55,455 nucleotides of DNA from Candidatus Aerophobus profundus SCGC AAA252-L23 (GCA_000402295.1 AQRW01000190.1:1-55455), one strand, 5' to 3'; positions 15,937-39,888 are shown, counted from the stretch's first letter. Numbers and translations are program-made. Notes: generated by a model not told the origin, from the letters alone.

Positions 15937-16202
15937 AGGACTCAGGAACGACAACCGGTTAATTGGTCTGGCCTGGGTGTCATTGGCTGTTTTCTTGTCC
16001 TTGCTGTCCATCTACGCTGTGGTGGACAATAAGCTACTTTTGGTCATGGTATTTGGAGTCCCCATTTCTCTCATCTTCTTTTTTCGCCCTCTATGGGGAT
16101 TGTACATACTCGTTGCTCTGATTCCCTTTCAACTTTTCCCAATGGCCTTCTTCGGTAGCCCATACACTTTCTCGGTGTGTCAGGTGCTGGTTAAGCTTCT
16201 AT
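15781..16202. repeat. right copy of the 422-bp direct repeat
   Basis: See 14175..14596. Confidence 0.9.
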
Positions 16203-24468: not shown

Positions 24469-25344
24469 ATACTCAAAATTAAGCTGAAAACCTCACTTAT
24501 CAATATCCTCACCATTGATGTCGAGGATTGGTATGCGTCCAGTTTAGCTCTTCTTAACGGGCCAAACTCGGTATACGGGCAGCGGCCTGCTGGGAGTGTT
24601 GTAGGAAACGCGAGAAGAGTCCTCAAAATTCTGCAAGAATATAGTTGTGAGGCAACTTTTTTTGTGCTGGCGACGGTAGCAGAGCACTATCCGGACTTGG
24701 TTAGAGAAATTCATGATGCCGGTCACGAGATTGCTACCCACGGCTACGCTCATCGGCTGGTCTACCGAATGAGACCAGAAGAATTTGAGGAAGATCTGGT
24801 TAAGTCCCTGAAATTGATTGAGAATGTTATTGGGGAAAAGGTAGTTGGGCATCGGGCCGGATACTTCTCGATCACGAAACAGTCACTCTGGGCCCTGGAT
24901 ATTCTGGCCAAGCATGGCATCAAGTACGACTCGAGTATTTTTCCCATTCGCCGGAGACTTTATGGGATTCCTGACTTTCCCCGCTTTGTCTCTCAAGTAA
25001 GAAGTAAAGGGAGATACGGACTTCGGGAGGTTCCGCCCTCCACGGTTCGGATATGGGGTCAGAATGTTCCTATCGCCGGTGGCGGCTATCTTCGCGTTCT
25101 TCCGTATTGGGTAATCAAACAGGGAATCAGGAGGGTTAATGCCCAGGGACACCCCGCGGTGATCTACCTGCACCCTTATGAGCTTGATCCCCAGGATATT
25201 AAAGTGCCAGGCGTTTCGCTCGGGTGGGGAACACGGTTTACCCAGCTCAGTCAACGATTCAATCGCTCGACGTTTGAAGGGAAACTAAGAAAGCTTCTCC
25301 GGGACTTTAAATTTGGCTCGGTACGAGAGGTGCTGGATTTGTAG
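24469..25344 (+). CDS. polysaccharide deacetylase (DUF3473 / XrtA-associated type); start codon uncertain
   Basis: The conserved N-terminus NILTIDVEDWY (from 24505), ATFFVLATVAEHYP and GHEIATHGYAH lies upstream of the first canonical start (GTG 24664). The frame is open from 24418 with only ATA 24469, ATT 24478 and CTG 24484 as possible starts. Confidence 0.7.
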   Translation: MLKIKLKTSLINILTIDVEDWYASSLALLNGPNSVYGQRPAGSVVGNARRVLKILQEYSCEATFFVLATVAEHYPDLVREIHDAGHEIATHGYAHRLVYRMRPEEFEEDLVKSLKLIENVIGEKVVGHRAGYFSITKQSLWALDILAKHGIKYDSSIFPIRRRLYGIPDFPRFVSQVRSKGRYGLREVPPSTVRIWGQNVPIAGGGYLRVLPYWVIKQGIRRVNAQGHPAVIYLHPYELDPQDIKVPGVSLGWGTRFTQLSQRFNRSTFEGKLRKLLRDFKFGSVREVLDL

Positions 25345-25451
25345 TTAGTGAGTCATAAGGAAGAAAGGATATTTGAAGCACTAATATGTAAGCGACCGCC
25401 GTCGGAGAGTTTTGAGGTCCTTGCGTCATTGAGTCAAAAGCAATAAAAACC

Positions 25452-25486
25452 GAGATTGCCACGTCGCTTACGTTCCTCGCAATGAC
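25452..25486. repeat. REP-like element, family 1 (GAGATTGCCACGTCGC...CCTCGCAATGAC)
   Basis: Related copies at 29604..29632, 45819..45853 and 47008..47042, plus an inverted pair at 52073..52107 and 52131..52158. Confidence 0.8.
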
Positions 25487-25566
25487 ATCGGGCATGTCTA
25501 TCTCTCTCTGGATGACAGTGAGGGCGGAGTGGGAATGCCGAGGAGACAAGATTTTGAAAATGAGGA

Positions 25567-26481
25567 ATGAAGCTTAGACAAATAACATGTGACATCTGTG
25601 GAAGTGGTAATGTGGAGGTTGTGGGTAAACCGCCAGTCGAAGAAAGACTCAGAACGAGATTTCCCCAATTGAGTGAAACCTCGGTGGTCCGGTGTACCAA
25701 CTGTTGCTTCTACTTTGTCAGCCCAACGCCTTTCTTTAGCAAAAGCGAATTAAAGTTCATTTACGACCAGACCTATTTCAAAGCATCGGTCATGACTGAC
25801 TGGTGGAGAAAAAGGAGAGTCAGGGACAGAATTTGTCGGTTAGACGCTATCGAGCAAATGAGCTCACCGCAAGTGAGAAAGCTTTTGGATGTTGGTTGTG
25901 GGGAGGGCTGGGTTTTGTGGGAAGGCCAGAGGCGAGGATGGGAGGTGTGGGGTGTAGATGTATCAAATAATCTGGCGGATCCTCTAAAAAGTAAGTTTGG
26001 TGAAAGACTGGTCATTGGAAGGCTGCCAGAAGTGGGGTTTGCATCTGAATCCTTCGACGCGATCTATATGGATTCAGTTTTGGAACATGTTCCGTCCCCT
26101 ACCTCCATGATGAGGGAGTGTTACCGGATACTCCGTAGGGGGGGGTGCCTCTATGTTGGAGTTCCTAACGAAGACAGCCTGATGAACGAGGTGAAAAGGT
26201 TACTTTGCAGTGCAAAAGGATATGGGGCGTCGTCACGGTTGAATCCATTCAGGAACCCTTACCACATTGCTGGATTCAATAGAGGTTGCTTTACGAAAAT
26301 GGCTGAAAAACTGGGCTTCCGGGTTGAGAAAATTAGAATTTTCGGCGGACATTATGAGTTTTTGAAGTATAGGTCAGGTTGGACAGTTTTTGGCAAGTTG
26401 TTGTTTCATTCTACCGTACACGCGGTGGGCCTGTTGTTTGGGAAAGGGTTTTACATTCAGGCCTGGCTGATAAAGGAATGA
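25567..26481 (+). CDS. class I SAM methyltransferase with N-terminal zinc ribbon
   Basis: CDICGSG...CTNCCFYF, LLDVGCGEGWVLW, FDAIYMDSVLEHVPSP, GGCLYVGVPNE. Confidence 0.8.
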   Translation: MKLRQITCDICGSGNVEVVGKPPVEERLRTRFPQLSETSVVRCTNCCFYFVSPTPFFSKSELKFIYDQTYFKASVMTDWWRKRRVRDRICRLDAIEQMSSPQVRKLLDVGCGEGWVLWEGQRRGWEVWGVDVSNNLADPLKSKFGERLVIGRLPEVGFASESFDAIYMDSVLEHVPSPTSMMRECYRILRRGGCLYVGVPNEDSLMNEVKRLLCSAKGYGASSRLNPFRNPYHIAGFNRGCFTKMAEKLGFRVEKIRIFGGHYEFLKYRSGWTVFGKLLFHSTVHAVGLLFGKGFYIQAWLIKE

Positions 26482-26667
26482 TCTAACGTTAACAAATATG
26501 GTTGTGAGACCTACTCTCACAGTCTCTCTCCGCGATGGTTCCGATAAGAATTCTTATGTTAACCAAGCATACCTCTAATCCGCTCCAGATAAGACTTTCA
26601 TTTTGACTGTTTTTGTACATCTACAAATCCACATGGGAAGAAGTTTTATGATATGTCTGAAAAAGCG

Positions 26668-26793
26668 ATGAGTAGGCTATACAAGAATCCCCCGTTAATA
26701 GAGGCTGTATTCGAAATACGGTTTCCTGCTGAGTTGTTCATTGAGTGCCAAATAGATAGGTTCTACAAAAGAATTAGAAACGACTATCCTTAG
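26668..26793 (+). pseudogene. TIGR04255-family N-terminal fragment with a premature TAG
   Basis: MSRLYKNPPLIEAVFEIRFPAELFIECQIDRFYKRIRNDYP*. The paralogous copy at 29939.. has CAG where this copy has TAG (26791-26793). Confidence 0.65.
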
Positions 26794-26822
26794 ATATTTG
26801 TCCCCATAATTGTCGGGAAACC

Positions 26823-27047
26823 TCACAGTTCCTGCCATTTTTCCCGTGAGATGCCTATTTCCTTGATGATCTGTCGGACGAGACCTATGCTTATGTCTTT
26901 GCCTTTGTGGATGGGAAAAGGGATGATTCTTTTTTCCTCGAGATGAACCATTCTCACATGTTTTCCACCCGGTATGGGACCGACAAACCCAAGTTTTCTC
27001 AGCTTTCGGATTACCTCCGCGGGTTTAAGGGGTCGAAGTGGAGACAT
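26823..27047 (-). CDS. hicA: HicA-family toxin
   Basis: LKPAEVIRKLRKLGFVGPIPGGKHVRM...IPFPIHKGKDISIGLVRQIIKEIGISREKW. The ATG at 27047 is preceded by GAGGAAAG. Overlaps the hicB end. Confidence 0.75.
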   Translation of the reverse strand: MSPLRPLKPAEVIRKLRKLGFVGPIPGGKHVRMVHLEEKRIIPFPIHKGKDISIGLVRQIIKEIGISREKWQEL

Positions 27048-27294
27048 CTCTTTCCTCAATCTCTATTCCCGGGAGATGAGGTATCTCGAATCCCAATTGC
27101 AAAGCTAAGGTGACGTTACCTTCTATGGCATCCCTCAAATTCTCTCTTGCCTCTTCAAAGCAGTCGCCTTGGGCAAAGAATCCTGATGCCTCCGGTACTC
27201 TGGCAATCACTATTCCGTTTTCGTCTCGAAAATACTCAGCTTTTCTGAGGCATTCGTCAAGATAACGGGAGAGTGAGAAGATTCTTGCTTTCAT
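27025..27294 (-). CDS. hicB: HicB-like antitoxin
   Basis: MKARIFSL...VARVPEASGFFAQGDCFEEARENLRDAIEG pattern. Located directly upstream of hicA. Confidence 0.6.
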   Translation of the reverse strand: MKARIFSLSRYLDECLRKAEYFRDENGIVIARVPEASGFFAQGDCFEEARENLRDAIEGNVTLALQLGFEIPHLPGIEIEERDVSTSTP

Positions 27295-27330
27295 GATTTC
27301 ACCTGTGAGTCCTATCTTCACCCATAAGGA

Positions 27331-27358
27331 AGTATAATAACCGGTGCGGAGATGTCAA
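27331..27358 (-). promoter_or_regulatory. sigma70-like promoter TTGACA-16-TATACT for the hicBA operon
   Basis: Minus strand: TTGACA (27358-27353), a 16-nt spacer, TATACT (27336-27331), about 37 nt upstream of the ATG at 27294. Confidence 0.55.
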
Positions 27359-27370
27359 GAATTTAACATG

Positions 27371-27437
27371 TGTCAAGGGACACCATCTCTTACGAGGTTA
27401 GGGGACACCAACCTTTACGAATTATTATTCAAAAGAA
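27371..27437. repeat. dispersed about 67-bp repeat (TGTCAAGNGACACCATCTCTTACGAGGTT..GGACACCAAC.TTTACGAATTATTA.TCAAAAGAA)
   Basis: Other copies at 40302..40368 (near-identical), 43122..43213 (expanded, three sub-repeats) and 31088..31124 (partial). It contains two 17-nt direct sub-repeats: GACACCATCTCTTACGA and GACACCAACCTTTACGA. Confidence 0.8.
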
Positions 27438-27467
27438 GATCTTTGCTGTGGGATTTTATGGGGCTTT

Positions 27468-27498
27468 CTCCGATAAATCGGACCACTACAATATGGGG
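27468..27498. repeat. REP-like hairpin, family 3 (TCCGATAAATCGGACCNCTACAATATGGGG)
   Basis: Copies at 43292..43320 and 52510..52540. The stem is TCCGAT/ATCGGA. Confidence 0.75.
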
Positions 27499-27536
27499 GT
27501 TTTTCGCCAGCGTTCTATCTTGGTCCGTTAAGAGTG

Positions 27537-27872
27537 TTAAAGAAATTCGATGTGATTTTCCATTTCTTGCTGACTAAGAAGCTGGGCAACGAGTTCAATC
27601 ATACGAATACACTGTCCTACAGACAAACGCAAGGGATGAGCGTATAAGATCCCTCTATGTTTCCTTCCCTCTTGATTCCAGCGATGAGCTATTTTGAGCA
27701 AATCTGTATCATGAGTAACAATTACTGCTCCCAATCTGGAAGCACGCTGTAGATGATATTCATCGCTTTTCCCTAAATCTTCCCTATCTCGTGCTGATAC
27801 AACCTGCAGATTCCTTCTTCTAAGACCCTCCACAATGCCCGCCTCAATATTTTCATCGCAATAGATTTTCAT
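27537..27872 (-). CDS. DUF5615-family PIN-like (Mut7-C-like) putative toxin
   Basis: MKIYCDENIEAGIVEGLRRRNLQVVSA...VIVTHDTDLL. Overlaps the stop of the upstream DUF433 gene. Confidence 0.65.
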   Translation of the reverse strand: MKIYCDENIEAGIVEGLRRRNLQVVSARDREDLGKSDEYHLQRASRLGAVIVTHDTDLLKIAHRWNQEGRKHRGILYAHPLRLSVGQCIRMIELVAQLLSQQEMENHIEFL

Positions 27873-28189
27873 TCCTCAGACTTGGTCTTTAATTTAGATG
27901 GGTAAAGATTTCTCAGTTCTTTCAGGAAGATCTCCTCTTTTTTGTATGCGTTATCCAGCTCCAATTTGTTTTCATAGTAGTAGGAAAGAGCATCATGAAT
28001 TTGAGCCAGAGTTAAGTGAGGGAACTGTTGTATCATCTCATCCGGTGTCATCCCCCCGAATTCGTATCGAATAGCAATATCCATAACCTTGGTGCGTGTT
28101 CCCGCAATTACGGGAGTTTCCTTCCTAATTCCGGGATCAACGGTCACATAGGGATGTTTCAATTCACTTGGCCTGACATTGGTAGACAT
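27869..28189 (-). CDS. DUF433 domain protein (putative antitoxin partner)
   Basis: HPYVTVDPGIRKETPVIAGTRTKVMDIAIRYEFGGMTPDEMIQQFPHLTLAQIHDALSYYYEN is the classic DUF433 pattern. Confidence 0.75.
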   Translation of the reverse strand: MSTNVRPSELKHPYVTVDPGIRKETPVIAGTRTKVMDIAIRYEFGGMTPDEMIQQFPHLTLAQIHDALSYYYENKLELDNAYKKEEIFLKELRNLYPSKLKTKSEE

Positions 28190-28224
28190 CTCTGCCTCCT
28201 TACTCTTTATTGACAGTGTTCAGA

Positions 28225-28414
28225 CATTGTAATAATCGAAGATTTCAAGACCTTGTGTAGTGAGTTTGATAACTCTATTTGCCTTATCTTAACTTTCTTT
28301 GATGAAGGGTAGATGTTTCTCTTTCGTTGTCTCAACTATCGTTCTGGGTTTTTGCGTTGCTTGGTATTGTATACTTTCTTTGCCAGATGTCCAATCTTGC
28401 CAAAAAGGGACGGT
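28225..28414. repeat. 190-bp cassette shared with 40901..41090; carries a minus-strand TTGGAC-17-TACAAT promoter
   Basis: Gap-free alignment by eye to 40901..41090. The -35 is at 28394-28389 and the -10 at 28371-28366 (minus strand). In the second copy they are at 41070-41065 and 41047-41042. Confidence 0.8.
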
Positions 28415-28536
28415 GGAAATGGTAAACTGAATTCCTGGTACTATGGTAAACAGAAATCCTATATGGATGGTAAACAGAAATCCCATTTCGGAAGAGCTCC
28501 TGTATAGTTTTAGAAAACTCTACAGGAGAGGAAATG
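28414..28536 (+). mobile_element. solo left end of the IS21-family element (no transposase)
   Basis: Matches 35638..35808 from the terminal TGGAAATGGTAAACTG through the istA ATG, but with 3 rather than 5 of the 24-bp phased GGTAAACAGAAATCC repeats (at 28421, 28445, 28469). Similarity ends right after the ATG. Confidence 0.8.
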
Positions 28537-28552
28537 GACAAGGAGGAGTGAA

Positions 28553-28765
28553 ATGAAATATAGAGTAGTCATTGAACAAGACGAAGACGGTGTATTTGTT
28601 GCTGAGGTTCCATCTTTGCCTGGGTGCATCTCACAAGGGACTACGAGAGCGGAGGCACTCAAGAATATTCAAGAAGCAATAGAAGCGTATGTGGAAAGCT
28701 TGAAAGCACACGATGAGCCTGTTCCTCCATCAATAAGCGAGGAAGTAGTCGAGGTGGCGGGGTGA
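28553..28765 (+). CDS. hicB: HicB-family antitoxin (UPF0150-type)
   Basis: MKYRVVIEQDEDGVFVAEVPSLPGCISQGTTRAEALKNIQEAIEAYVESL. Strong SD (AAGGAGGAG). Confidence 0.8.
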   Translation: MKYRVVIEQDEDGVFVAEVPSLPGCISQGTTRAEALKNIQEAIEAYVESLKAHDEPVPPSISEEVVEVAG

Positions 28766-28935
28766 GTGTTCTTCCTCGTGTCTCAGGCCGAGAAGTTGTT
28801 GCGGCTTTGGATAGACGTGGCTATGAAAAAGTTATACCTCCCACCCCTACAGGGATTGTGTCCCACTTCGGGGTCACCTCGCCCTGTTATTACTCCTTCT
28901 CAGAAATGTTATTCCCAAAACGCACCCTTTTGTGA
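28762..28935 (+). pseudogene. hicA remnant (only the first 22 or so codons are HicA-like)
   Basis: A GTGA overlap with the hicB stop. VSVLPRVSGREVVAALDRRGYEKV matches a HicA N-terminus, then the sequence becomes unrelated. Confidence 0.55.
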
Positions 28936-29087
28936 TAATTCTCTTCACCAATGAACTGGCCAAGAGGCTTTTCACCATCGTTGTAGCGCGGCGCCGAAGA
29001 ATTTGCGATTTTGCAGAGGTGGGAGAGGTTGTCGGAGACTTCCTCCGACCAGTTCTCAAGGCTGTGTCTTCGGGTATGTTGACCAAC

Positions 29088-29487
29088 CTCTCAAGTGAGA
29101 GGTAAGGGGAGACACGGACTCTGGGAGGTCTCTCCCTCCATGCTTCGGATATGGGGCCAGAATGTTCCTATCGCCGGGGGCGGTTATCTCCGGATCCTTC
29201 CCTATTGGGTAATCAAACGGGGAATCAGGAAGGCTAATACCGAGGGGCACCCGGCGGTGATCTACCTGCATCCTTATGAGCTTGATCCCCAGGATATTGA
29301 AGTTCCCGGTGTCTCGCCCGAGTGGGGGACACGGTTTACTCAGTTCAGTCAGCGATTCAATTGCTCAACGTTTGAGGGCAAGCTGCGAAGGCTTCACGGG
29401 GACTTTGAATTTGGCTTGGTCCGAGAGATACTGAATTTGTAGTTGGCCAGTTATGAAGAACATGAGGATATTCGAAGCACTAATATC
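29088..29487. repeat. second copy of the deacetylase 3' block (partner 24989..25387)
   Basis: Contains ORF 29095..29442, whose product aligns with the last 115 aa of the deacetylase at 24469..25344 (IWGQNVPIAGGGYLR, HPAVIYLHPYELDPQDI). The downstream GAAGCACTAATAT motif is also shared. Confidence 0.85.
29095..29442 (+). pseudogene. C-terminal fragment of a DUF3473 polysaccharide deacetylase
   Basis: See the repeat at 29088..29487. There is no N-terminal catalytic region upstream. Confidence 0.85.
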
Positions 29488-29673
29488 GAAATAATGGGTG
29501 TGGTCGAGTCTTTGAGTTTATCACGTCTATTCCGTCTGTTCAGTCGTTCGGTCGAAGACCGAGACAACCAATGACCAGTAACTAATCACCAGTGACAGAA
29601 ACCGAGATTGCCAGGTCGTTTGCACGTTCTTGGGAGGCTAAAGCCTCCCCTACACGGGGTATACGGACTTGGT

Positions 29674-30088
29674 GGTTTCGATAAGAATTCTGTGTTAACC
29701 AAGCATATCTCTAATCCGCTCCAGGTATGGCTTTCATTCCGGCTGTTTTTGTACACCTACAAATCCACGTGGGAAGAAGTTTATGGTGCACCCCAATATT
29801 GATCACAGTATTGTTTCTTACTGAGATGCGGAGGAGGAATAATCCCCACCTCTTACTTGCTGAAAAGCAAAAATGCATACTTCAACCTGGTAATCTTGAT
29901 TCCAAAAACATATCAATTATGATATGCCTGAAAAAGCGATGAGTAAACTATACAAGAATCCCCCGTTAATAGATGCTGTATTCGAAATACGGTTTCCTGC
30001 TGAGTTGTCCATTGAGTGCCAAAGAGACAGATTCTACGAAAGAATTAGAAACGACTATCCTCAGATATTTGTCCCCATAGTTGTCGGA
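29674..30088. repeat. second copy of the TIGR04255-5' block (partner 26537..26817), with an extra segment of about 135 bp
   Basis: Shared: GATAAGAATTC..GTTAACCAAGCATA.CTCTAATCCGCTCCAG... through ...TTGTCGG. 29772..29905 has no counterpart in copy 1. Confidence 0.8.
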
Positions 30089-30106
30089 GAATCTCTTTCT
30101 TTATAA
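29939..30106 (+). pseudogene. TIGR04255-family N-terminal fragment (55 aa)
   Basis: MSKLYKNPPLIDAVFEIRFPAELSIECQRDRFYERIRNDYPQIFVPIVVGE. My recollection is that full-length family members are several-fold longer. Confidence 0.6.
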
Positions 30107-30173
30107 AGCTATGACTAGCATTCTACCGCGAAGTACTGTGTAGAAATATTCAAATAAGGCCAACGTCGAACAC

Positions 30174-30587
30174 ATGGTCGAAGTATTGGACGACTTGAGA
30201 GGAAAACAGAAGCTGGCGGATAGAGGTATGAAGTTTCTCAAAGAAGGAATAGAGTTTCTCGAACTCGTAAAAAGAGGAAAGCATTATACCAAGACCCTCC
30301 AACTAGACGAGCGTGCTATGGAATCCTGTTCAGCATTTGGAATGGCTCTTAGAGCACTTAATCATCTGTATAGCGTAAATGAGACCGTGGAACAGGTGGC
30401 ACATCCAAATATTGATGATTTCTTCGATGATATCAATGGGATGTTAATTAAAATTACAAAGGACGGTAGCGTGTCTCCAGAGAGACTGGATTTTCTCCGA
30501 GCATTCTTTGGAGCTATTCGGGACATTATAATACAGGAGAATTTGCGGCCGCCCGAAAGTGTGTTAATTAAGCAAGGGCTGGTTTAG
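30174..30587 (+). CDS. hypothetical protein (probably all-helical), first gene of an orphan three-ORF cassette
   Basis: 137-aa ORF with no recognisable motif. Tightly packed with the next ORF (2-nt gap). Confidence 0.4.
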   Translation: MVEVLDDLRGKQKLADRGMKFLKEGIEFLELVKRGKHYTKTLQLDERAMESCSAFGMALRALNHLYSVNETVEQVAHPNIDDFFDDINGMLIKITKDGSVSPERLDFLRAFFGAIRDIIIQENLRPPESVLIKQGLV

Positions 30588-30589
30588 GT

Positions 30590-30832
30590 ATGGAAGAGAT
30601 CGTAGGTGCACGAATTCAAGACGTTGTCAGGGACAAATTGTTTGGACTTGAAAGGTTACTCAAGGAATGTGAACCGGAGATGTCACTGCAAGGAGCCTTG
30701 GCCTTCTTGGATGCAACGAAAATGATTCTGAAGATTACGGAGGTTTACTACGAAGAGAGAGTTAAGAAAATAATGCAGATTAGAGATCAAAGCATTTGCG
30801 CAAAAAGACGACTTGCCGAAATCATTCGTTGA
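30590..30832 (+). CDS. hypothetical protein; possibly the N-terminal part of a frameshifted gene continuing in 30813..31166
   Basis: 80-aa ORF. The overlap with the next ORF lies at an A5 run (GCAAAAAGACG). Confidence 0.35.
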   Translation: MEEIVGARIQDVVRDKLFGLERLLKECEPEMSLQGALAFLDATKMILKITEVYYEERVKKIMQIRDQSICAKRRLAEIIR

Positions 30833-31166
30833 GAACGTACTCAAAGATATTAGGCAAAGCAAGCGACCTGATTCTTTTGTTTTCGTCTTATATCCCTGGA
30901 CGGAATTTCAGTCTCTTTTGTTGCCATCCTTAGTAGGACACGAAATTGGACATTTGAAAGAATCCAAAGAAAATCTGTGTGAGCTCTTCTTGCCAGAAAC
31001 CTTACATAAACCGAGCGTAGAAGCGCTGGTGCGGCGTCTGGCCCAAGAACCTCTGTATTCCAGTCAATCAACCACCCAATCACATACCTCAAGGGACACC
31101 ATCTCTTGCGAAGTTAGTGGACACTTCATCACCAAAACCTTGCTTTGTACCTTATCTTTGCTATAA
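30813..31166 (+). CDS. hypothetical protein with an HExxH motif (VGHEIGH), C-terminally replaced by repeat sequence
   Basis: Has a zinc-metallopeptidase-like HEIGH. From about 31088 the ORF runs into the dispersed TGTCAAG-type repeat, so the C-terminus is probably not native. Confidence 0.35.
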   Translation: MPKSFVENVLKDIRQSKRPDSFVFVLYPWTEFQSLLLPSLVGHEIGHLKESKENLCELFLPETLHKPSVEALVRRLAQEPLYSSQSTTQSHTSRDTISCEVSGHFITKTLLCTLSLL

Positions 31167-31321
31167 TCAAGAGACTCTTGACCAAGAAATCAGGTCAACA
31201 AAATAGAGACCAAATAAACTAAGCTAATTAAGGAGATAAGAAGCTACCATCTCCCGCCATGAGCTGTTGAAGAAGCAGAAATCGGTATAACATAAGAGAT
31301 GGTCTATACCAGGAGGCAAAG

Positions 31322-31585
31322 ATGATACAAATTGAGTTTGATATGATTGCCTTTAAGGAAGGGGCGAGTTACGTTGCTTATTGTCCTGAACTTGATATTT
31401 CAAGTTGTGGAAACACTGTGGAGCAGGCCAAGGAAATGCTCAAGAGCGCTATAAGGCTATTTCTCGAAGAAGCAGAGAAGATAGGTACCCTTAAAGACAT
31501 ACTTGAGGAAGCTAACTACAAGAAAGACACAAGCGGTAAATGGCTACCACCAAGACTTGTAGCAACAGAGCTGATAAGTCTGTGA
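31322..31585 (+). CDS. hicB: HicB-like antitoxin
   Basis: FKEGASYVAYCPELDISSCGNTVEQAKEMLKSAIRLFLEEAEKIG. Confidence 0.6.
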   Translation: MIQIEFDMIAFKEGASYVAYCPELDISSCGNTVEQAKEMLKSAIRLFLEEAEKIGTLKDILEEANYKKDTSGKWLPPRLVATELISL

Positions 31586-31588
31586 TAA

Positions 31589-31822
31589 ATGCCTAAGATA
31601 TTTCCAATTCCAGCAATTAGACTAAGAAAGATATTTGAAGAGGCTGGATTTAATTGTGTTAGAATTGAAGGTGACCATTATGTTTATACGAAAAAAGGAC
31701 TTATCAGACCTATTGTTATACCTAATTGGCCAGAGGTACCGGTATTCATAATCAGAAATAATATAAGAACCGCAGGAATTAGCAGGGAACATTATTTCCA
31801 ACTCCTAAAAAGGGTAAAATGA
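31589..31822 (+). CDS. hicA: HicA-like toxin
   Basis: IRLRKIFEEAGFNCVRIEGDHYVYTK...IVIPNW. Located 3 nt downstream of hicB. Confidence 0.6.
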   Translation: MPKIFPIPAIRLRKIFEEAGFNCVRIEGDHYVYTKKGLIRPIVIPNWPEVPVFIIRNNIRTAGISREHYFQLLKRVK

Positions 31823-31890
31823 AAAAACATTGGTAGAAGTGGAGCGACAAAGCAATTCTTCTGTCACTGCAAACAGACCAACACTTCTCT

Positions 31891-31943
31891 AGCCGCAACC
31901 TAAAGGTTGCGCTTGTTCTTCGCAGGCTAAAGCCTGCGGCTAC
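31891..31943. repeat. REP-like hairpins, family 2 (GC-stem with a CTAAAG/TTTTAA loop)
   Basis: GCCGCAACCTAAAGGTTGCGC and CGCAGGCTAAAGCCTGCGG. Related hairpins at 29632..29650, 45778..45799, 47428..47484 and 55256..55348. Confidence 0.75.
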
Positions 31944-32079
31944 CGCTCCCTAACCCTTGCTTTTTAATAAAGCTCACCGGTTACTTTGCGATGAAGTAAA
32001 GATCTACTCACCAACCAAAATCGTCAATTAATGTTCAGCTCCACATTACTATTCTATAGTTTAGTTAATACTCTGTACT

Positions 32080-32526
32080 TTGTACAGAATTTGCCTTGGC
32101 TACCAGATTCACAAGAAAATCCAGGTTGCTTCAGTTGGCAGACGCCCAGTTTATCGCAAATCAAAGTACAAGTTCCAGGCTGTATTAGTGAGGATTGAGC
32201 AGGAGAAAATAGCCATTAGAAAAAAGCGCAAGCACACTCGTTACGTAATTATCCATAATGTCTTAGGCCTTAGTGGGGCTAGAAGTGCCTTTGAGTTTTA
32301 CCACCAAAGACAAACAATAGAGAATTTCTTCAAAGAATCAAAGAACCCCTTTCATGCCGGGAAGATGCCTTCTCAGAGGTTTCGGGCTAATGAGGCTTAT
32401 CTTTGCTTTGTCTCTATCGCCTATAACATCTTTTCCATTTTTAAAAAAACTATCTGCCAAAGATATGACCAGGATGCTCTCTGGAAACTTTTAGCCATAG
32501 AACCATCTCTCAGGCAATCCGAATAG
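32080..32526 (+). pseudogene. C-terminal fragment of a DDE transposase (IS4/IS1380-like)
   Basis: YHQRQTIENFFKESK...FRANEAYLCFVSIAYNIFSIFK resembles the E-containing C-terminal DDE block. No N-terminal D-D region is present. Confidence 0.5.
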
Positions 32527-32698
32527 AAGAAAAAGAGGAAAGAGTTTTCCCTTTGCATATGAGTCAGGAATATAGATACAAAGCCGAACTAAATCTGATA
32601 CTTAGAAATCTAAGATACGCAATCATTTTAGGTAGAATACTGAAGAATAGCGGAATTACCTGATATACAAATAAAGTGCAATATTTTCGTGATTTCCG

Positions 32699-32917
32699 TT
32701 AAACTGCTACTTTGACTTTCCCAATCATGAGGTTTTCTTCCTGAGGAATTTCTTGGCTATCTTCCTTTAAGGCTACAAGGTGAGTCTCAATAGCTTCTCT
32801 AACACTCACCAGGGCTTGCTCGACGGTATCTCCTTGAGAGTAGCATCCAGGAAGAGAGGGCACTTCCACCCAATAACCACCCTCTCCGGCGGAATGTAAA
32901 ATCACGGTATACTCCAT
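32699..32917 (-). CDS. hicB: HicB-family antitoxin (UPF0150-type)
   Basis: MEYTVILHSAGEGGYWVEVPSLPGCYSQGDTVEQALVSVREAIETHL. Confidence 0.8.
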   Translation of the reverse strand: MEYTVILHSAGEGGYWVEVPSLPGCYSQGDTVEQALVSVREAIETHLVALKEDSQEIPQEENLMIGKVKVAV

Positions 32918-32928
32918 TTTTTATCCTC

Positions 32929-33153
32929 CTATAATAATCCGATGAATTCTCTCTCTGTTAAACCAGTTTTTCCGATGGCATTTTTAAGAAGACCTATTTT
33001 GATTTCACCTTTGGCAGGAATAGTGATTATTAATCCATTTGGCATTTTGATATTGACATGGTCACCCTTACCGCCTCTTTGAACACCCCCAGCTCTTACA
33101 AAGACCCTGATGGCTTCTTTTCCTTTAATACCTCTTAGTCTTTGTGCACTCAA
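32929..33153 (-). CDS. hicA: HicA-family toxin
   Basis: GKEAIRVFVRAGGVQRGGKGDHVNIKMPNGLIITIP...IGLLKNAIGKTGLTEREF. Confidence 0.7.
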   Translation of the reverse strand: MSAQRLRGIKGKEAIRVFVRAGGVQRGGKGDHVNIKMPNGLIITIPAKGEIKIGLLKNAIGKTGLTEREFIGLL

Positions 33154-33442
33154 TTTTCTTGATTACCTCTTTCTTACTTAGTGATATTGGCAATATCTTT
33201 TTACTCCTCCTCGGGGTTCAACTTTTGGCTCAGAAAAGAGTTTAACAACAGGGCTGGGAATGTCAAGGAAGGTGTGGTGGTCAGGGGCTTATCGTGGCTG
33301 GTTTCTGGTGGAGCGAGCGAAGGCTGGATGATTTTGTCTATTGTTACTTAATGCATTATCTCTCACCTTCTTTCTCTGGCTTGCTGCCGGCTGGTTATCA
33401 TCGGAATCTACTTTCAATTTCTCAGTGTCATACTTGGGGTCA

Positions 33443-33470
33443 TTGACAATACGCAATATTTTACTATGAT
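33443..33470 (+). promoter_or_regulatory. sigma70-like promoter TTGACA-16-TATGAT upstream of abiEi
   Basis: TTGACA at 33443-33448 and TATGAT at 33465-33470, about 70 nt before the ATG at 33542. Confidence 0.55.
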
Positions 33471-33541
33471 GTTGCCAAATAACATAAAAAGGTGAATAAC
33501 CGAAAGGTTTAAATATTGCCAGTTATAGATGAAAGGTAAAA

Positions 33542-34240
33542 ATGAAATACTTGGAGGATTTTTACAGAAAATTGGGGAAATGGAAAGGTAGCTTAGTGAA
33601 AACCGAGATGTTGAAAGAACAGAATGCAAAGGAATACTTGAACAGGTTAGCAAGAACTGACTTAGTTGAGAGAATAAGCTGGGGATGGTACTGGATTTCT
33701 GTAGAAATAAAAGATGAATTGGATTTCCTGGCTAAAGACAAAAACCTTAAGGTGATAGCCGCCCAAACAGCAGCATCTTTTTGGAATGCTGATTTTGTCC
33801 ACAGGGATATTTACGTTGTAAAGGTGATTGACAGATCTTTTGCCAAGGCATTGCAGCAATTCAGTAAGAAGAAGAATCTGAAGATCAAAGTAGAATATGT
33901 CAAAGGTAAAATAAAATATGTGAAAATGGGAAGATTAAATGTTGAAAGAATGGAAGACAGCATTATAGATTGCTTACAAAACTGGGCTTTTATCGATGCC
34001 TTTGCTACTTTGTATGCTAACAGGGAAAAGATTGATTTTGAGAGTTTAGCCAGGGAAAATTATTGGAAAAGGATCCCGAAAACTTCTGTCAGGATTGGGC
34101 AGGTTTTAGGTTACGGCTGTTGCCAATTGGATAAGGTAGCTCGAAAAACAGTGTTTTCTGTCAGAAAAGCCGGCCTAAAAGATGGATTCATAAGAGAAGA
34201 GGTGGATGAGGCAATCGAAAAGGTAGTTGAATATAGCTAA
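33542..34240 (+). CDS. AbiEi-like antitoxin/transcriptional regulator (type IV TA)
   Basis: An N-terminal wHTH-like region (EYLNRLARTDLVERISWGWYWI). Overlaps and precedes an AbiEii-type nucleotidyltransferase. Confidence 0.5.
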   Translation: MKYLEDFYRKLGKWKGSLVKTEMLKEQNAKEYLNRLARTDLVERISWGWYWISVEIKDELDFLAKDKNLKVIAAQTAASFWNADFVHRDIYVVKVIDRSFAKALQQFSKKKNLKIKVEYVKGKIKYVKMGRLNVERMEDSIIDCLQNWAFIDAFATLYANREKIDFESLARENYWKRIPKTSVRIGQVLGYGCCQLDKVARKTVFSVRKAGLKDGFIREEVDEAIEKVVEYS

Positions 34241-34994
34241 GCACATCAGGATAATGCAGGAAAGAGAAAGAGAGATAGCGGAGCCGATAGAGTTCCTTTC
34301 AGACAAATCTCAAAACTTTGAGAATCCAAAACTTGTTACGATAGGCGGTTATGCACTACGAGCCTTTACTCCTTTGGCACGATATACCAGAGATTGTGAT
34401 TTTGTTTTAAGAAAAGAGAATGAATGGAAACTGGACAGAATAAAAAAGTTGATGTCAAAACACATGAGCATAGTCAGCCTGGAAAAACACAAGGATTACG
34501 GATTTATGAGATGCGTCAAGCCAGTAAGGGTAGGTGGCAGGCTTGTTAAAGTTTCTCTTGATTTTATGGAAGGAAAAGTTGTGGGTAGAAGTGAAAAAGA
34601 GCAAGTGGTAATTGATGAAGGTTTTACAAATGACAGCAAGAAGCAAAAGATTGAAATAGCGGGAACAAAGTTTGAGATTTACATTCCCAGTTACAGGGAC
34701 TATTTCATTTTGAAGATTGTGAGTGGGAGAGCGAGCGATACAAGAGATATAGCCACATTGGTCTGGCAAAAAGGGATTCCGGATCAAATAAGGAATAGGG
34801 CAAAACAGATAGTACCTTTTCCCGAGATATTTGATGAGAATCTGAGGAAAGCAATAGCAGATATTTCTGACAGAAGGTTTGTTGATTCGTGGCGTGGGAC
34901 TTTTATTAGCAAAGATTTTAGTGAAGATGACAAAGAAAAGGTGTTACAGAAGCTTGGGGAATTACTGCGGGAGTTTATGAACCTGCAAACTTAG
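34227..34994 (+). CDS. AbiEii/AbiGii-family nucleotidyltransferase toxin
   Basis: TIGGYALRAFTPLARYTRDCDFVL matches the GGxAL...R.T.D.DF nucleotidyltransferase signature of the family. Confidence 0.6.
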   Translation: MNIAKHIRIMQEREREIAEPIEFLSDKSQNFENPKLVTIGGYALRAFTPLARYTRDCDFVLRKENEWKLDRIKKLMSKHMSIVSLEKHKDYGFMRCVKPVRVGGRLVKVSLDFMEGKVVGRSEKEQVVIDEGFTNDSKKQKIEIAGTKFEIYIPSYRDYFILKIVSGRASDTRDIATLVWQKGIPDQIRNRAKQIVPFPEIFDENLRKAIADISDRRFVDSWRGTFISKDFSEDDKEKVLQKLGELLREFMNLQT

Positions 34995-35510
34995 CCCTGT
35001 CCTGTCGCAAGCTGAGGAGTTAATATGGCAAACCCATGTATAAATGCAGGAAATCAAGTCCTATTGAGTACAAAATAAAGGCCCATACTTATAAGAGAAT
35101 CCAGTTTTGGAAGAATCTAGTAGTTAGTTTCCAAAATAACCTGATATTTCTCCAAATACATATTCCGGTGAAACTTACCACCTGTTCCGGTTTAAATTTA
35201 CCACTGATTCACCTTTCACATTCCCCTCTGGTTATCTTAGCAAAAGTGGTAACTTTGGGTCAGATTATAGTGAAACCAAACTTAGCGGGAGAGATGCTAT
35301 GGCGAAGAGGTAAGGGGGTATTCAGTGGAATAAAAAGATGACTTAAACTGTCACTTTGACTTTCCCAATCATAAGGTTTTCCCCCTCAAATTTCTTCCCT
35401 ATCGATTACCAAAATTACCAGAAAATCCCACCTCTTTGGAATGAAGATGATGTTACCAGAACTCACTAGTTATCTTTAGACATGGTTTCATCTTGGATTG
35501 CCCTCTTTGG

Positions 35511-35637
35511 TTACAAAAACTCAATTGTATTGGTCATGTCCTTTTGCGATCGAGCTTCAACCAACGACTTAATCCTTCGGATACATTCGCCAGTGGATAA
35601 TCTTTGTTGATGTACATAGATTATGCCGTAGTGCTTT
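35511..35637 (-). pseudogene. 3' part of a DUF5615 PIN-like toxin gene severed by the IS21 insertion
   Basis: Encodes HYGIIYVHQQRLSTGECIRRIKSLVEARSQKDMTNTIEFL*, collinear with HRGILYAHPLRLSVGQCIRMIELVAQLLSQQEMENHIEFL* of the intact paralog at 27537..27872. Confidence 0.85.
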
Positions 35638-35805
35638 TGGAAATGGTAAACTGAATTACTGGTACTATGGTAAACAGAAATCCCATGGTAGTGGTAAATA
35701 GAATTCCCATGGTAATGGTAAGCAGAAATCCTATATGGATGGTAAACAGAATTCCCATCTCGGAAGAACTCCTGTATAGTTTTAGAAAACTTTACAGGAG
35801 AGGAA

Positions 35806-37365
35806 ATGATAAGAGAAAAAATGTACGAAAAAGTTCAACTTTTGAAAAGACTGGGATATCCCAGATCAAAGATAAGCTCTGATCTGGAAATAGACCCCAG
35901 GACCGCGGCCAAGTATTACGTTATGGATGAAAGGCAGTTCAAGACTTACCGCAGAGAGCACATGTTTCGGGATAAGGTGCTGGAAGAATATAAGGAAGAT
36001 ATCCTCAAAGTGTACAAGGTAAATGAATTTCACAGGCTTAATATGAGTGCCGTATATGATTATCTGGAAGAGAAATATGGCCCTCTTGCGGCCAATGAAC
36101 AAACCTTGCGCAACTACATAGATTATCTTATTAAGACAGACAAGTTAAGGTTGAATGAGAAGATAAGACTCTATTGCGAAGTTCCGGAACTTCCCTTTGG
36201 AAAACAGATGCAGCTTGATTTTGGCCAGTACCGGTGCAAAAGTGGACTTAAGCTCTATATATTTGCCTCTTTGCTTTCGGCAAGTCGCTATAAGTACGTC
36301 AATTTTCAGGACCATCCCTTCAGGACAAAGGAGGTTATTGGTCATCTGCTTAATTGTTTTGATTATTTCAGAGGAGTACCTGAGGAGATGGTTATTGATC
36401 AGGATAACTTAATGGTAGTGAGCGAGAATGCCGGGGACATAATCTACACCGATGATTTTAAGTATTTTATCGAGGAGCAAAAGATAAGAATGTATGTGTG
36501 CCGGGCAGCAGATCCTGAAACAAAAGGAAAAATTGAGAACCTCATTAAATTTGTAAAAAGCAATTTGCTCTCGATAAGGGATTTTAAGAGTGCAGATGAG
36601 GCAAATGAAAGTGGGTTTAAATGGCTCAAAAGAAGGGCAAACGGGAAGATATCCCAGGCTACCAAGCAGATACCGGCACTTCTGATTGATGAGGAAAGAG
36701 AACACCTTAGATCTGTAGGGAACTCCCTATTCAGGAAAGGCTCCCTTATAGGCAGAGAAAAGAGGAATGCAAACGAGAAAGCTTGTATATCAGTAGAAGC
36801 CTCGAGCTATCAGCTGCCTTTAAAATATCAGAACAAAACCGTTGAGATCTACCTCACCAAACACAAGCTTTTCGTCTTTGATCTCTACACAGCAAAGGAG
36901 ATTATTGAGTATGAGCTTTCTCCTATTCCCGGAAGAATATTCTCTAAGAGAGAACACCGAAGGGAGAGGGAGAAAACAGCCCAGGAGCTGAAAACGCTTG
37001 TTTCTGAGATGTTTGAATCAAAGAGCTGGAAGAGCTTTACCATGAGGAATTTTAAAGCCTTTTCCCGGTATGTCAGAGACCAATGTCTGGAGGCGAAAAG
37101 ATACTTTCTGGTCAAGGATATTGACCTTGATATTCTGGAGCAAGCTCTCAAATATTGCCTCAAGAATGATACGCTAAGTTTTTCCCACTTGAATGATACC
37201 TATGCCTATTTTAAGCATGAGTCTGAGGGACCCAATGATATCCTCAAGGAAATACAAACACTGGACCGCAAGTACCAAGGTGCGCATGAACCTTTAGAGG
37301 TCAATGAGAGAAGTTTATCTGTGTATAAAGAGCTCATCGGGATAAGCAAAGGAGCAGTTACATGA
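35806..37365 (+). CDS. istA: IS21-family transposase IstA
   Basis: 519 aa. N-terminal HTH, DDE-region pattern (QMQLDFGQY..., VIDQDNLMV, PETKGKIENLIKFVK). Overlaps istB by ATGA. Confidence 0.85.
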   Translation: MIREKMYEKVQLLKRLGYPRSKISSDLEIDPRTAAKYYVMDERQFKTYRREHMFRDKVLEEYKEDILKVYKVNEFHRLNMSAVYDYLEEKYGPLAANEQTLRNYIDYLIKTDKLRLNEKIRLYCEVPELPFGKQMQLDFGQYRCKSGLKLYIFASLLSASRYKYVNFQDHPFRTKEVIGHLLNCFDYFRGVPEEMVIDQDNLMVVSENAGDIIYTDDFKYFIEEQKIRMYVCRAADPETKGKIENLIKFVKSNLLSIRDFKSADEANESGFKWLKRRANGKISQATKQIPALLIDEEREHLRSVGNSLFRKGSLIGREKRNANEKACISVEASSYQLPLKYQNKTVEIYLTKHKLFVFDLYTAKEIIEYELSPIPGRIFSKREHRREREKTAQELKTLVSEMFESKSWKSFTMRNFKAFSRYVRDQCLEAKRYFLVKDIDLDILEQALKYCLKNDTLSFSHLNDTYAYFKHESEGPNDILKEIQTLDRKYQGAHEPLEVNERSLSVYKELIGISKGAVT

Positions 37366-38105
37366 AAGCCTATGAAGAGACTCTGAGCTTTTTAAGCACC
37401 CTGAATCTGAAAGGAATAGCCAATAATCTTGATGAAATGATACATGATGCAGAGATAAGCAAAACCTCCTATATTACCTTTCTCAACACCCTATTTACCA
37501 CTGAGATATCTTATAGAGTTAAACGCCGTGTGCAGAGAAACATGGTGGCAGCTCATTTTCCCGTGATAAAGAGAATTTCGGATTTTGAGTTTGGCCGGGT
37601 CAAGGGAATAGGAAAATCAGAAGCGGTAAATCTTCTTGACTGTGCTTGGATAGATAACAAAGAGAATCTCTTATTCTTTGGTCCCCCTGGTGTAGGGAAA
37701 ACGCACTTAGCCATATCCTTTGCGGTGGCTGCTGTAGAAAAAGGATATAGTGTTTGTTTTGAGAAAATTGCCAACCTCATCAAGCTTTTGAGAACGGCAG
37801 AGATCCAGAAAAAATCTGAATACCGGATCAGAAGAATAATGAAGTCAAGCCTAGCCGTAATTGACGAGATCGGATACACTTCGATTGAGAGACGAGAGGC
37901 CAATTTGTTTTTCAACCTGATTAGTGAAATGTATGAAAAATTATCCATTATCATTACTTCCAATAAAAGTTTTGAGAACTGGGCTGAGATGATGGGTGAC
38001 AGTGTCATGACCACAGCGTTGCTGGACAGACTATTGCATCACGCTAGGATTTTCAATATAGATGGAGAATCCTACAGAATAAAAAATCAGAAAAAGGAGG
38101 TGTGA
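37362..38105 (+). CDS. istB: IS21-family helper ATPase IstB
   Basis: Walker A FFGPPGVGKTHLA, Walker B LAVIDEIGY, ALLDRLLHH. Confidence 0.9.
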   Translation: MKAYEETLSFLSTLNLKGIANNLDEMIHDAEISKTSYITFLNTLFTTEISYRVKRRVQRNMVAAHFPVIKRISDFEFGRVKGIGKSEAVNLLDCAWIDNKENLLFFGPPGVGKTHLAISFAVAAVEKGYSVCFEKIANLIKLLRTAEIQKKSEYRIRRIMKSSLAVIDEIGYTSIERREANLFFNLISEMYEKLSIIITSNKSFENWAEMMGDSVMTTALLDRLLHHARIFNIDGESYRIKNQKKEV

Positions 38106-38194
38106 TCATTTCTAACTTCTTGAGAAATGGGAAATCTGTTTACCGGAACACTGGGAAATGTACTTACCGAAGGGGTGGGAAAAGTACTTGACAT

Positions 38195-38422
38195 TTACAG
38201 CTTTAGCTCATGTTCTTTTGCCAGAGCAAGAAAGTCATCGTCGTGCGTAAATATGGTCAACTTCTTTTCTGAGGCAAACTTCAATTGAGCTTTGTCAGTA
38301 AGTCCTAGGTTTCCGACATCTTTGGCCGAGATAGCCTTCACACCCCGACGCCTTAAACCCTGGGCAATTGCCACATTTGCACTTTCATTGGTGTAGATGC
38401 AGATTGTTTCCTGCTTACTCAT
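38195..38422 (-). pseudogene. 5' part of the IS21-disrupted DUF5615 PIN-like toxin gene
   Basis: MSKQETICIYTNESANVAIAQGLRRRGVKAISA...IFTHDDDFL. The last codons and the stop (CTG TAA) are supplied by the IS end. Confidence 0.85.
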
Positions 38423-38712
38423 TTATCTTTAAGTTGATACTGTTTCCTTAGTTTCTCCACTTGGGCTTTCCGTTGTCTAATTTCTCGGTCCAACTCTTCT
38501 CTATGTTCATAGTAATAGGATAGAACATCGTGTACCTGGGACAAATCCAGATATGGATGAGCATCAATAATCTCATCGGGCGTATAACCTAAGTACTCGT
38601 ACTCAATAACTAGGTCGATCACCCTTGTTCTGGTTCCGGAGATAACGGGGCTTCCTCCACATATGCTCTTATCCCGGATAATATAGGGATGTGTAGTCAC
38701 TGTTTTGCTCAT
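38419..38712 (-). CDS. DUF433 domain protein (partner of the disrupted DUF5615 gene)
   Basis: HPYIIRDKSICGGSPVISGTRTRVIDLVIEYEYLGYTPDEIIDAHPYLDLSQVHDVLSYYYEH. Confidence 0.75.
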   Translation of the reverse strand: MSKTVTTHPYIIRDKSICGGSPVISGTRTRVIDLVIEYEYLGYTPDEIIDAHPYLDLSQVHDVLSYYYEHREELDREIRQRKAQVEKLRKQYQLKDK

Positions 38713-39872: not shown

Positions 39873-39888
39873 CAATACCTGATACCGT

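Follow-up and report, generated by a model that had tools for sequence, protein, structure and literature searches.

Gene organisation of the locus

The locus lies in a window of 55,455 nucleotides (the whole stretch of DNA analysed), in a Candidatus Aerophobetes MAG of 190 contigs at 70% completeness. It consists of two sets of direct repeats, X–Y and X'–Y', on either side of a TA block (Table 1). Self-alignment places X (24990-25387) against X' (29088-29486) at 84.0% identity over 399 columns with 1 gap (E 1e-108), and identity begins 9 nt further upstream, at 24981/29079, at CTCTCAAGT. The alignment of Y with Y' falls into two collinear pieces: a left one (26536-26650 versus 29673-29785, 88.7%) and a right one (26646-26819 versus 29917-30091, 93.1%), with exact runs of 34 nt (26704-26737 and 29975-30008) and 26 nt; copy 2 (29673-30091) holds 131 nt (29786-29916) beyond copy 1. 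A preliminary description had proposed two diverged direct-repeat sets flanking the TA block, in the same order and orientation, and the self-alignment bears this out very nearly at the positions it gave. Its family calls also hold, X and X' matching TIGR03006/DUF3473 and Y and Y' matching positions 2-42 of TIGR04255, as does a TAG in copy 1 (26791-26793) where copy 2 has CAG (30062-30064).

Table 1. Features of the two repeat sets and of the DNA between and around them.
Feature	Position	Strand	Remarks
TIGR03006-like polysaccharide deacetylase	24496..25344	+	Polysacc_deac_1 and DUF3473; intact, 282 codons
Block X	24990..25387	+	last 118 deacetylase codons and 43 nt downstream
Short dispersed repeat, REP-like	25417..25487		counterpart at 29586-29659
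Class I SAM methyltransferase	25567..26481	+	N-terminal zinc ribbon; set 1 only
Y-left, copy 1	26536..26645	+	110 nt, non-coding
Y-right, copy 1	26646..26825	+	TIGR04255 start and ~56 codons; ends at hicA stop codon
hicA	26823-27059	-	Pfam HicA_toxin; first cargo module, with hicB
hicB	27025-27321	-	Pfam UPF0150/HicB; pairs with hicA
DUF5615 (PIN-like)	27537-27872	-	paired with DUF433
DUF433	27869-28189	-	paired with DUF5615
190-bp cassette	28224-28414		94% match to 40900-41090
IS21 left-end fragment	28414-28536		follows the 190-bp cassette
Second hicB	28553-28765	+	followed by the hicA stub
hicA stub	ends 28831	+	23 codons, then 247 nt of filler to 29078
Block X'	29079..29486	+	putative displaced 3' remnant of a second deacetylase allele; frame open to the same stop, 29440-29442
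Y-left, copy 2	29673..29785	+	nucleotide self-alignment with copy 1
Native TIGR04255 upstream (promoter) region	29786..29916	+	80-88% to loci L113-L129; lost from copy 1
Y-right, copy 2	29917..30114	+	TIGR04255 codons 1 to ~63; TAA at 30104-30106
Block W	30115..30832	+	orphan ORFs of 137 and 80 aa, after truncated TIGR04255

The gene content between the sets is as first described: hicBA, the DUF433/DUF5615 pair, the 190-bp cassette, the IS21 end, and a hicB followed by a hicA stub. The stub is real, as two other contigs (L107, L108) have an intact 75-aa hicA after an identical hicB and their likeness to the window ends at 28831. Exact repeats of 49-58 nt are common to the cassette/IS21-end stretch and to 40983-41090. 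The methyltransferase is confined to set 1, as reported, and its G8 tract at 26138-26145 is a G9 in a contig of another run. Exact-protein look-ups returned no record of the methyltransferase, hicA, DUF5615 or DUF433. The REP-like repeat has further copies on many contigs and in genomes of relatives. When 40 related genomes were searched at the DNA level, only dispersed repeats and TA cassettes were recovered, and neither X nor Y. No RNA family of Rfam matches within the window. A minus-strand mini-ORF in Y-left was rejected as a gene: its copies share 68% amino-acid against 89% nucleotide identity, and it has no homologs elsewhere.

The deacetylase gene and block X'

In the intact deacetylase gene, CTT stands where the canonical ATG would be; the N-termini of homologs read MINxLTIDVEDWY, and that of the window reads LINILTIDVEDWY. 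Homologs P0002-P0012 cover 24496-25341 in a single frame (tblastn). The gene scores 272 bits against TIGR03006, below the cut-off of 276.2, and a profile search of the 70%-complete MAG gave no match to Exosortase_EpsH; on these two grounds its product is best called TIGR03006-like, rather than a member of the XrtA-system TIGR03006.

Block X' opens at 29079, sharply, behind unrelated DNA, and the same junction is present in two further contigs (L104, L105). Across the coding part, X and X' differ at 16/9/29 sites by codon position, with dN 0.10, dS 0.46 and a pairwise dN/dS of 0.21-0.27. When replacements were polarised with 12 outgroups, 8 were assigned to X, 14 to X', and 2 remained ambiguous; had X' been neutral since the split, at least 8 of 22 on X would have a probability of 0.0009-0.02. 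Both copies are equidistant from the outgroups (58-66 versus 57-65 identities of 117). The divergence of X' thus arose mostly under purifying selection, and X' is therefore what is left, at the 3' end, of a second, once-functional and diverged deacetylase allele, rather than a fragment copy that decayed.

Among 5.8 billion proteins, where the deacetylase nearest to either copy is 69% identical, and among metagenome contigs, there was neither a donor nor an empty site, and no intact allele of the X' type; the search for a donor or undisplaced state yielded partial module matches only (L112, L130). The order's 30 other genomes hold neither a donor nor the undisplaced state, and the deacetylase gene occurs in one of the 30, at 51% identity. 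Species-representative genomes offer deacetylases of 50-52% identity at best, too remote for synteny. The nearer metagenomic deacetylases (63-69%) are followed by PHP, ATP-grasp, VanZ, GT4, DegT and CapD genes, and never by TIGR04255 or the methyltransferase of set 1. The X' ORF, read from a GTG start, is not on record in an exact-protein look-up.

The TIGR04255 fragments

Y and Y' cover only profile positions 2-42 of TIGR04255, of which a full-length match would be ~250 residues; the genome has an intact paralog at C153:20339-21001. Seventeen full-length metagenome TIGR04255 genes align with copy 2 from 29788 to 30114 (codon ~63), so the extra 131 bases of copy 2 are native, and copy 1 has lost them. 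The loss falls between TTATG microrepeats, and a promoter-like site is predicted at 29896-29923. As a small mobile insert (MITE), the 131-nt segment was rejected: it has no further copies in the genome and occurs in native TIGR04255 loci. Y-left is absent from those loci.

Both fragments had been described as ending at the same point, with truncation therefore preceding duplication. The likeness of Y to Y' stops at 26819-26825/30091-30097, exactly at the hicA stop codon, while copy 2 goes on matching full-length genes to 30114, so that Y' holds ~15-20 more coding bases at its 3' end; an AAA has become TAA in copy 2 at 30104-30106. With unequal 3' ends, and with internal DNA kept in Y' that Y has lost, the argument for truncation before duplication fails. 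Rather, Y is a derived, shortened form of a Y'-like sequence, since it is without the 131 nt of native upstream DNA, carries the TAG and has the shorter 3' end. Coding changes between the two fall 4/3/5 by codon position, a near-neutral look. The two truncations lie only ~20 nt apart, a mild coincidence that counts against the model proposed below.

Divergence of the two repeat blocks

Fourfold-degenerate sites differ between X and X' at 21 of 49 (43%), and the non-coding tail at 9 of 43 bases; Y and Y' differ at 22 of 283 (7.8%). The contrast between 43% and 7.8% (Fisher p=6e-9) rules out a duplication in the simple sense: the X and Y blocks differ in age, and a single simple duplication is excluded. 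The duplication of the preliminary description, for which divergence had been suggested as a check, was thus not one event. A recent duplication is expected to show uniform neutral divergence along the unit, whereas X/X' and Y/Y' differ in this, and neutral evolution of the dead copy, against which stand the dN/dS and the 8:14 replacements given above. Were donor and recipient simply two strains, Y would be as diverged as the silent sites of X; the observed values are 7.8% and 43%, a point against the displacement model proposed below.

Junctions in independent contigs

Comparison with related contigs, also suggested earlier, gave a divided answer: the junctions are present in independent contigs, but an empty site lacking the cargo is found in no relative compared, so that 'insertion' stays an inference. 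Every junction is covered, by L102 (16173-26733), L130 (26525-27706) and L104/L105 (28414-30004), and that between Y' and W by L110, L111 and L112. L110 and L111 are 100% identical to the window over the Y'-W junction; L112 matches 29837-30646 at 96.9% with the same junction. The Y-hicA junction stands in the JGI contig L130 at 99.6%. Elsewhere the modules are rearranged, L112 having Y'-W without X', and L130 having Y-hicA behind unrelated DNA (its first 90 nt give no window match scoring above shuffled sequence). The per-run contigs end at 26733/30004 and 29979, where a k=31 graph must branch; because they end at these forced branch points, all four runs hold both Y and Y'.

No independent contig spans 27706-28414, and look-ups of the proteins of that stretch gave no record from any per-run assembly. 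This one stretch contains exact repeats of 50 nt (27785-27834 = 40250-40299) and 58 nt (28357-28414 = 41033-41090), and the MAG is fragmented and incomplete, as noted above; these points would suit an assembly artefact, in which two places or two strains were falsely joined within 27706-28414 and the sets do not flank one insertion. We think this improbable, as the partners of these repeats share one contig with them and keep their order, so that a swap would not carry set 2 into a different genome; two per-run assemblies (L104, L105) confirm that X' is truncated behind hicB; and all four runs contain Y and Y'. All pieces would then lie on one molecule across this stretch.

Origin of the repeat sets

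The arrangement can probably, though by no means surely, be explained by DNA from a diverged relative (deacetylase, methyltransferase, Y and TA block) having been joined by homology at one end and illegitimately at the other. Set 2 (X'-REP-Y') would be the older border, at which a locus for sugar-polymer biosynthesis met an accessory TA/defence island, originally in the order full deacetylase gene, spacer, Y-left, native promoter and TIGR04255; block W would later have cut TIGR04255 at ~codon 63. Incoming DNA may have brought its own deacetylase allele, the methyltransferase, the shortened Y and the TA block (26820-29078), pairing by homology within the glycan genes at its left end and joining illegitimately at its right, midway through the resident deacetylase (29078/29079). 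The resident 3' third (X') and downstream border (Y') would so have been shifted 4.1 kb downstream to become pseudogenes. This route is named homology-facilitated illegitimate recombination, or 3' displacement; the same picture would be expected from one crossover with a fragment that had circularised. The locus shows what such a displacement leaves behind: downstream of an intact gene lies a 3' fragment that points the same way, begins abruptly at a non-homologous 5' edge and stems from a functional, diverged allele. We infer both that set 2 is the resident copy and that this was the route. The model assumes a glycan-gene allele much older than its flank, which is common at such glycan loci.

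An in-situ, tandem-like segmental duplication of the DNA between the middle of the deacetylase gene and codon ~56 of TIGR04255, its copies on either side of the TA block, seems unlikely. The sets are indeed collinear and in direct orientation, and a neutral X' is compatible with the codon-position counts alone (estimated chi-square p ~0.2). By itself, however, a duplication does not yield 43% against 7.8%; it would need later gene conversion between Y and Y', which the exact 34- and 26-nt runs could support, or replacement of the copy-1 deacetylase and methyltransferase by a diverged allele, and in all at least two extra events. The dN/dS is 0.21-0.27 where at least 0.5 would be expected for an X' neutral throughout, and the partition of replacements speaks against a long neutral phase.

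Campbell-type integration of a circle bearing an X..Y-homologous fragment and the TA block, through one crossover in homology, would also give repeat, cargo and repeat, the picture of the preliminary description, and would leave the same traces as the displacement proposed above; it accords with the direct repeats and their sharp outer and inner edges at 26820-26825 and 29078/29079, and the 34-nt identical core could serve for crossover or excision. It is nonetheless rather improbable. The region 26820-29078 holds no integrase, replication gene or att site, its sole mobile-element trace being the IS21 end fragment, and the recombinase and att sites at the cargo edges that mark site-specific integration are not there. 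The Y-hicA junction stands behind unrelated DNA in another strain (L130) and so predates any circle, and the contigs show neither a circular nor an empty form.

The same pattern recurs nearby on the contig. The sulfotransferase repeats at 14172-16202, to which the preliminary description had likened this locus, have also diverged under purifying selection (dN/dS 0.14-0.32), and a recombination route, not transposition, fits both. A bolder reading, to which we give little credence, would make the 3' deacetylase end a recurrent anchor at which the lineage stacks accessory cassettes, the old border being pushed downstream each time; it would resemble an integron or an Rhs orphan array, though no dedicated recombinase would be involved. 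Segments guarded by TA genes might also loop out reversibly through the diverged repeats (X/X', Y/Y' and those of 50-58 nt shared with 40.2-41.1 kb).

In an annotation, 29095-29442 and the two TIGR04255 ORFs are to be entered as relics, not genes. The locus gives a clean and datable view of how recombination between diverged relatives rebuilds surface-polysaccharide loci and the TA islands next to them, here in Aerophobetes, a candidate phylum for which metagenomes are the only source. A further caution is that cargo flanked by repeats may be neither a duplication nor the insertion of a mobile element. No new question arises from the locus.

Comparison with known systems

Such loci are known to be rebuilt in this way; the finding is ordinary in kind, and its mechanism is not new. 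In O-antigen and capsule gene clusters, recombination junctions carry gene remnants. As there, the sugar-polymer locus here is variable, a swapped segment has a partial copy of a gene at its edge, and inner alleles are far more diverged than the flank; unlike those clusters, the present locus comes from an uncultured Candidatus Aerophobetes MAG, its junction abuts a TA/IS island splitting the locus, and there is no serotype series.

Natural transformation can produce merodiploids and tandem duplications (Johnston 2013, PMC3784515). Exogenous DNA that pairs at alternative homologous sites can leave a junction flanked by partial duplications, much as here; those duplications are identical at birth and unstable, whereas the present copies differ by 8-16% and are unequal in age. 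For a tandem paralog cluster, Tsuru & Kobayashi 2008 (PMC2568036) take the unit of evolution to be an ORF 3' end, the intergenic DNA and the next ORF 5' end. The repeated unit here is likewise the 3' part of a gene, a spacer and the 5' part of the next; their tandem paralogous lipoprotein genes stay functional, whereas the second unit here consists of dead fragments.

For Rhs and T6SS effector-immunity arrays, displacement of 3' (C-terminal) ends has been proposed to occur via homology-facilitated illegitimate recombination (Kirchberger 2017, PMC5361080, citing Jackson 2009, PMC2935791, and de Vries & Wackernagel 2002, PMC122324). As in those arrays, the incoming module would be anchored by homology in a conserved upstream part, and the old 3' end is a downstream orphan that keeps its orientation, has a sharply cut, illegitimate 5' edge and stems from a functional allele. 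The displaced gene here, in contrast, is a polysaccharide deacetylase and not a toxin, the cargo consists of TA cassettes and not effector-immunity pairs, and there is a single displaced remnant, for which a selective logic such as retained immunity is not evident.

Repeat sets and intervening genes

Self-comparison of the contig recovers two collinear direct repeat sets, X and Y in set 1 and X' and Y' in set 2, with the same order and orientation (Table). The feature noted in the preliminary description is therefore real and its coordinates were essentially right, as were the gene content given for the DNA between the sets and the confinement of the methyltransferase to set 1; its interpretation holds only in part. 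Neither X nor Y occurs again in the 2.3-Mb, 190-contig assembly, of which the window is the complete contig C190. RpoC shares 78-85% identity with proteins labelled Candidatus Aerophobetes bacterium, placing the host among the uncultured members of this candidate phylum. In copy 2 of Y, the two pieces are set apart by an additional 131 bases (29786-29916). A 247-nt stretch of unassigned filler (28832-29078) connects the hicA stub to X'. The same sequence follows hicB in the ENA contig L109, with 99% identity up to 29058, suggesting that this junction predates X' or travels with it.

Repeat blocks, associated genes and independent metagenome contigs matched to the window
Feature	Source	Position	Content or match
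X		24990-25387	Last 118 codons of TIGR03006-like deacetylase + 43 nt downstream; 84.0% to X' 29088-29486 (399 columns, one gap, E 1e-108)
Zinc-ribbon SAM methyltransferase		25567-26481	Set 1 only
Y		26536-26819	First codons of TIGR04255 gene + upstream DNA
Y-left		26536-26650	88.7% to 29673-29785
Y-right		26646-26819	93.1% to 29917-30091
Cargo between sets		26820-29078	hicA/hicB, DUF5615/DUF433, 190-bp cassette, IS21-end fragment, hicB, hicA stub
L102	Logan, SRR3952011	16173-26733	99.99% (one indel)
L103	Logan, SRR3952012	23515-26145	100%
L104	Logan, SRR3952012	28414-30004	100%
L105	Logan, SRR3952014	28450-30004	100%
L110	Logan, SRR3952012	29979-35144	100%
L111	Logan, SRR3952013	29979-32309	100%
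L130	JGI sample 3300028620	26525-27706	99.6%
L112	JGI contig Ga0315548_1079627	29837-30646	96.9%

Unequal age of X and Y

The coding parts of X and X' differ at 54 of 351 nt (16/9/29 by codon position; dN 0.10, dS 0.46, NG86), and the 43-nt tail after the stop codon at 9 positions. Comparing the copies' divergence with that of a recent duplication, as was initially proposed, gives 43% for X/X' at fourfold-degenerate sites (21/49) against 7.8% for Y/Y' (22 of 283 aligned bases; p=6e-9, Fisher's test). In the coding part of Y, changes fall 4/3/5 by codon position and look near-neutral. X and Y are not of one age; the one simple duplication first suggested, followed by decay, cannot explain why the block with one copy under selection has five times the silent-site divergence of the other. 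Alleles of O-antigen and capsule loci are much older than their flanks, and the gap between X and Y is expected if this condition, assumed here, applies to these glycan-gene alleles.

The 24 amino-acid differences between X and X' were polarised with 12 homologs (63-69% identity), placing 8 derived replacements on X and 14 on X', with 2 ambiguous; outgroup distance is equal for both. If X' had evolved neutrally ever since the two diverged, X would be expected to hold about 0.1-0.17 of the replacements, and at least 8 of 22 on X has p=0.0009-0.02. For most of the time since it separated from X, X' was thus a functional gene. Its surplus of ~6 replacements, some of which alter invariant R, S and T residues, is consistent with a short recent neutral phase, which we infer at roughly 0.02-0.06 substitutions per site. 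This is of the same order as half of the Y/Y' divergence, so the event that cut X' may also mark the onset of that divergence.

Origin of the Y segments

Scanning metagenomes with the Y' peptide gave 43 loci, 17 of which (L113-L129) carry TIGR04255 genes. Unless cut off by a contig end they are full-length, at ~235-240 aa, with one of 330 aa. These match the window at 80-88% DNA identity from ~29788 to 30111-30114. The 131 bases absent from copy 1 are thus the native sequence upstream of TIGR04255. A promoter-like site (TTGATT-16-TATGAT) lies within them, and their loss is bounded by TTATG microrepeats. Copy 2 matches the native gene as far as codon ~63 and has TAA in place of AAA at 30104-30106; likeness between Y and Y' ends at 26819-26825/30091-30097, exactly at the hicA stop codon. 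Y is a derived form, shortened from a Y'-like sequence. The fragments, once thought to share an end point, end differently, and with this falls the inference that truncation preceded duplication.

Y-left (110 nt) is absent from the native loci in the L113-L129 alignment and has no recognisable content. Three unrelated sequences abut its left edge at almost the same position: the terminator of the methyltransferase (26520-26536), the spacer of short dispersed repeat (29660-29673) and DNA of unassigned origin (L130:80-100). This edge is a recurrent breakpoint.

The neighbours of TIGR04255 genes in relatives are defence-type: a Tsp45I restriction-modification pair in addition to a DUF4062-STAND NTPase. 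This places Y' in an accessory island rather than the glycan pathway and may indicate that this uncharacterised family functions in defence islands. Loci L117 and L124 hold relatives of the Y' gene adjoining these genes. The host assembly also has an intact 246-aa paralog on a different contig (C153:20339-21001), with 55-60% identity to Y and Y'.

Independent contigs over the junctions

Logan contigs end at 26733/30004 and start at 29979, which are forced k=31 graph branch points around a 34-nt identical core (26704-26737 = 29975-30008), so both Y copies co-occur in every run. L130 runs through the Y core and on across the boundary with hicA; nothing in the window is related to its first 90 nt. 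L112 covers Y' and the following orphan-ORF block (W, 30115-30832); upstream, in place of X', it has a dispersed repeat followed by a piece resembling 42037-42346, so island modules are shuffled between strains. In L112:1-551, from a 97%-identical relative, that piece is 93% identical to the window.

None of the matched metagenome contigs crosses 27706-28414, a stretch in which exact repeats of 50 and 58 nt have partners elsewhere on the same contig, at 40250-40299 and 41033-41090. With a further exact repeat of 49 nt, these direct repeats pair 27785-27834 with 40250-40299 and 28307-28414 with 40983-41090, in the same order and 12.5 kb apart; they might confuse assembly or allow 27835-40299 to loop out.

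The glycan locus

The nearest deacetylases lie inside glycan clusters, followed by PHP, ATP-grasp, VanZ, GT4, DegT and CapD-type genes; in the window CapD (43799-45700) and VanZ (45824-46282) resume past the TA/IS island. The deacetylase is found in 1 of 30 other genomes of the order, at 51% identity, and the 70%-complete MAG has no exosortase. This makes the locus an accessory one, and the label 'XrtA-system' is not to be read literally.

In its start region (24484-24500), the intact deacetylase has CTT at the position of the homologs' ATG (MINxLTIDVEDWY in homologs, LINILTIDVEDWY in the window), with no ATG, GTG or TTG before 24664. It must either use a rare start codon (CTG 24484, ATT 24478 or ATC 24499) or be poorly translated. 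The methyltransferase poly-G tract (26138-26145) is G8 in the window, in frame (304 aa), and G9 in L102, with a frameshift (200 + 99 aa); L103 ends exactly at the tract. Either a homopolymer error or phase variation by strand slippage in a glycan-modifying enzyme may account for this.

A proposed recombination model

The data are best explained by recombination with DNA from a diverged relative. Incoming DNA, a linear fragment or a circle, would pair homologously on the glycan side and be joined illegitimately at 29078/29079, displacing the resident deacetylase 3' end and its downstream border; either copy could be the resident. Y and Y' may have been partly homogenised by gene conversion.

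Other repeats occur on the contig. Diverged direct repeats lie near its end (47321-47518 and 55148-55382, 92.6% and 97.8%, 7.8 kb apart), and the contig also carries two tandem paralogs (47549-48524 and 48632-49607) that share 88% identity. The repeats flanking the sulfotransferase segment (14172-16202) likewise diverged under purifying selection (dN/dS 0.14-0.32).

The same model, recombination with displacement of the resident 3' end, has been put forward for the orphan arrays of T6SS and Rhs loci (PMC5361080); the repeat sets are a known type of recombination scar, in a phylum about which little is known.
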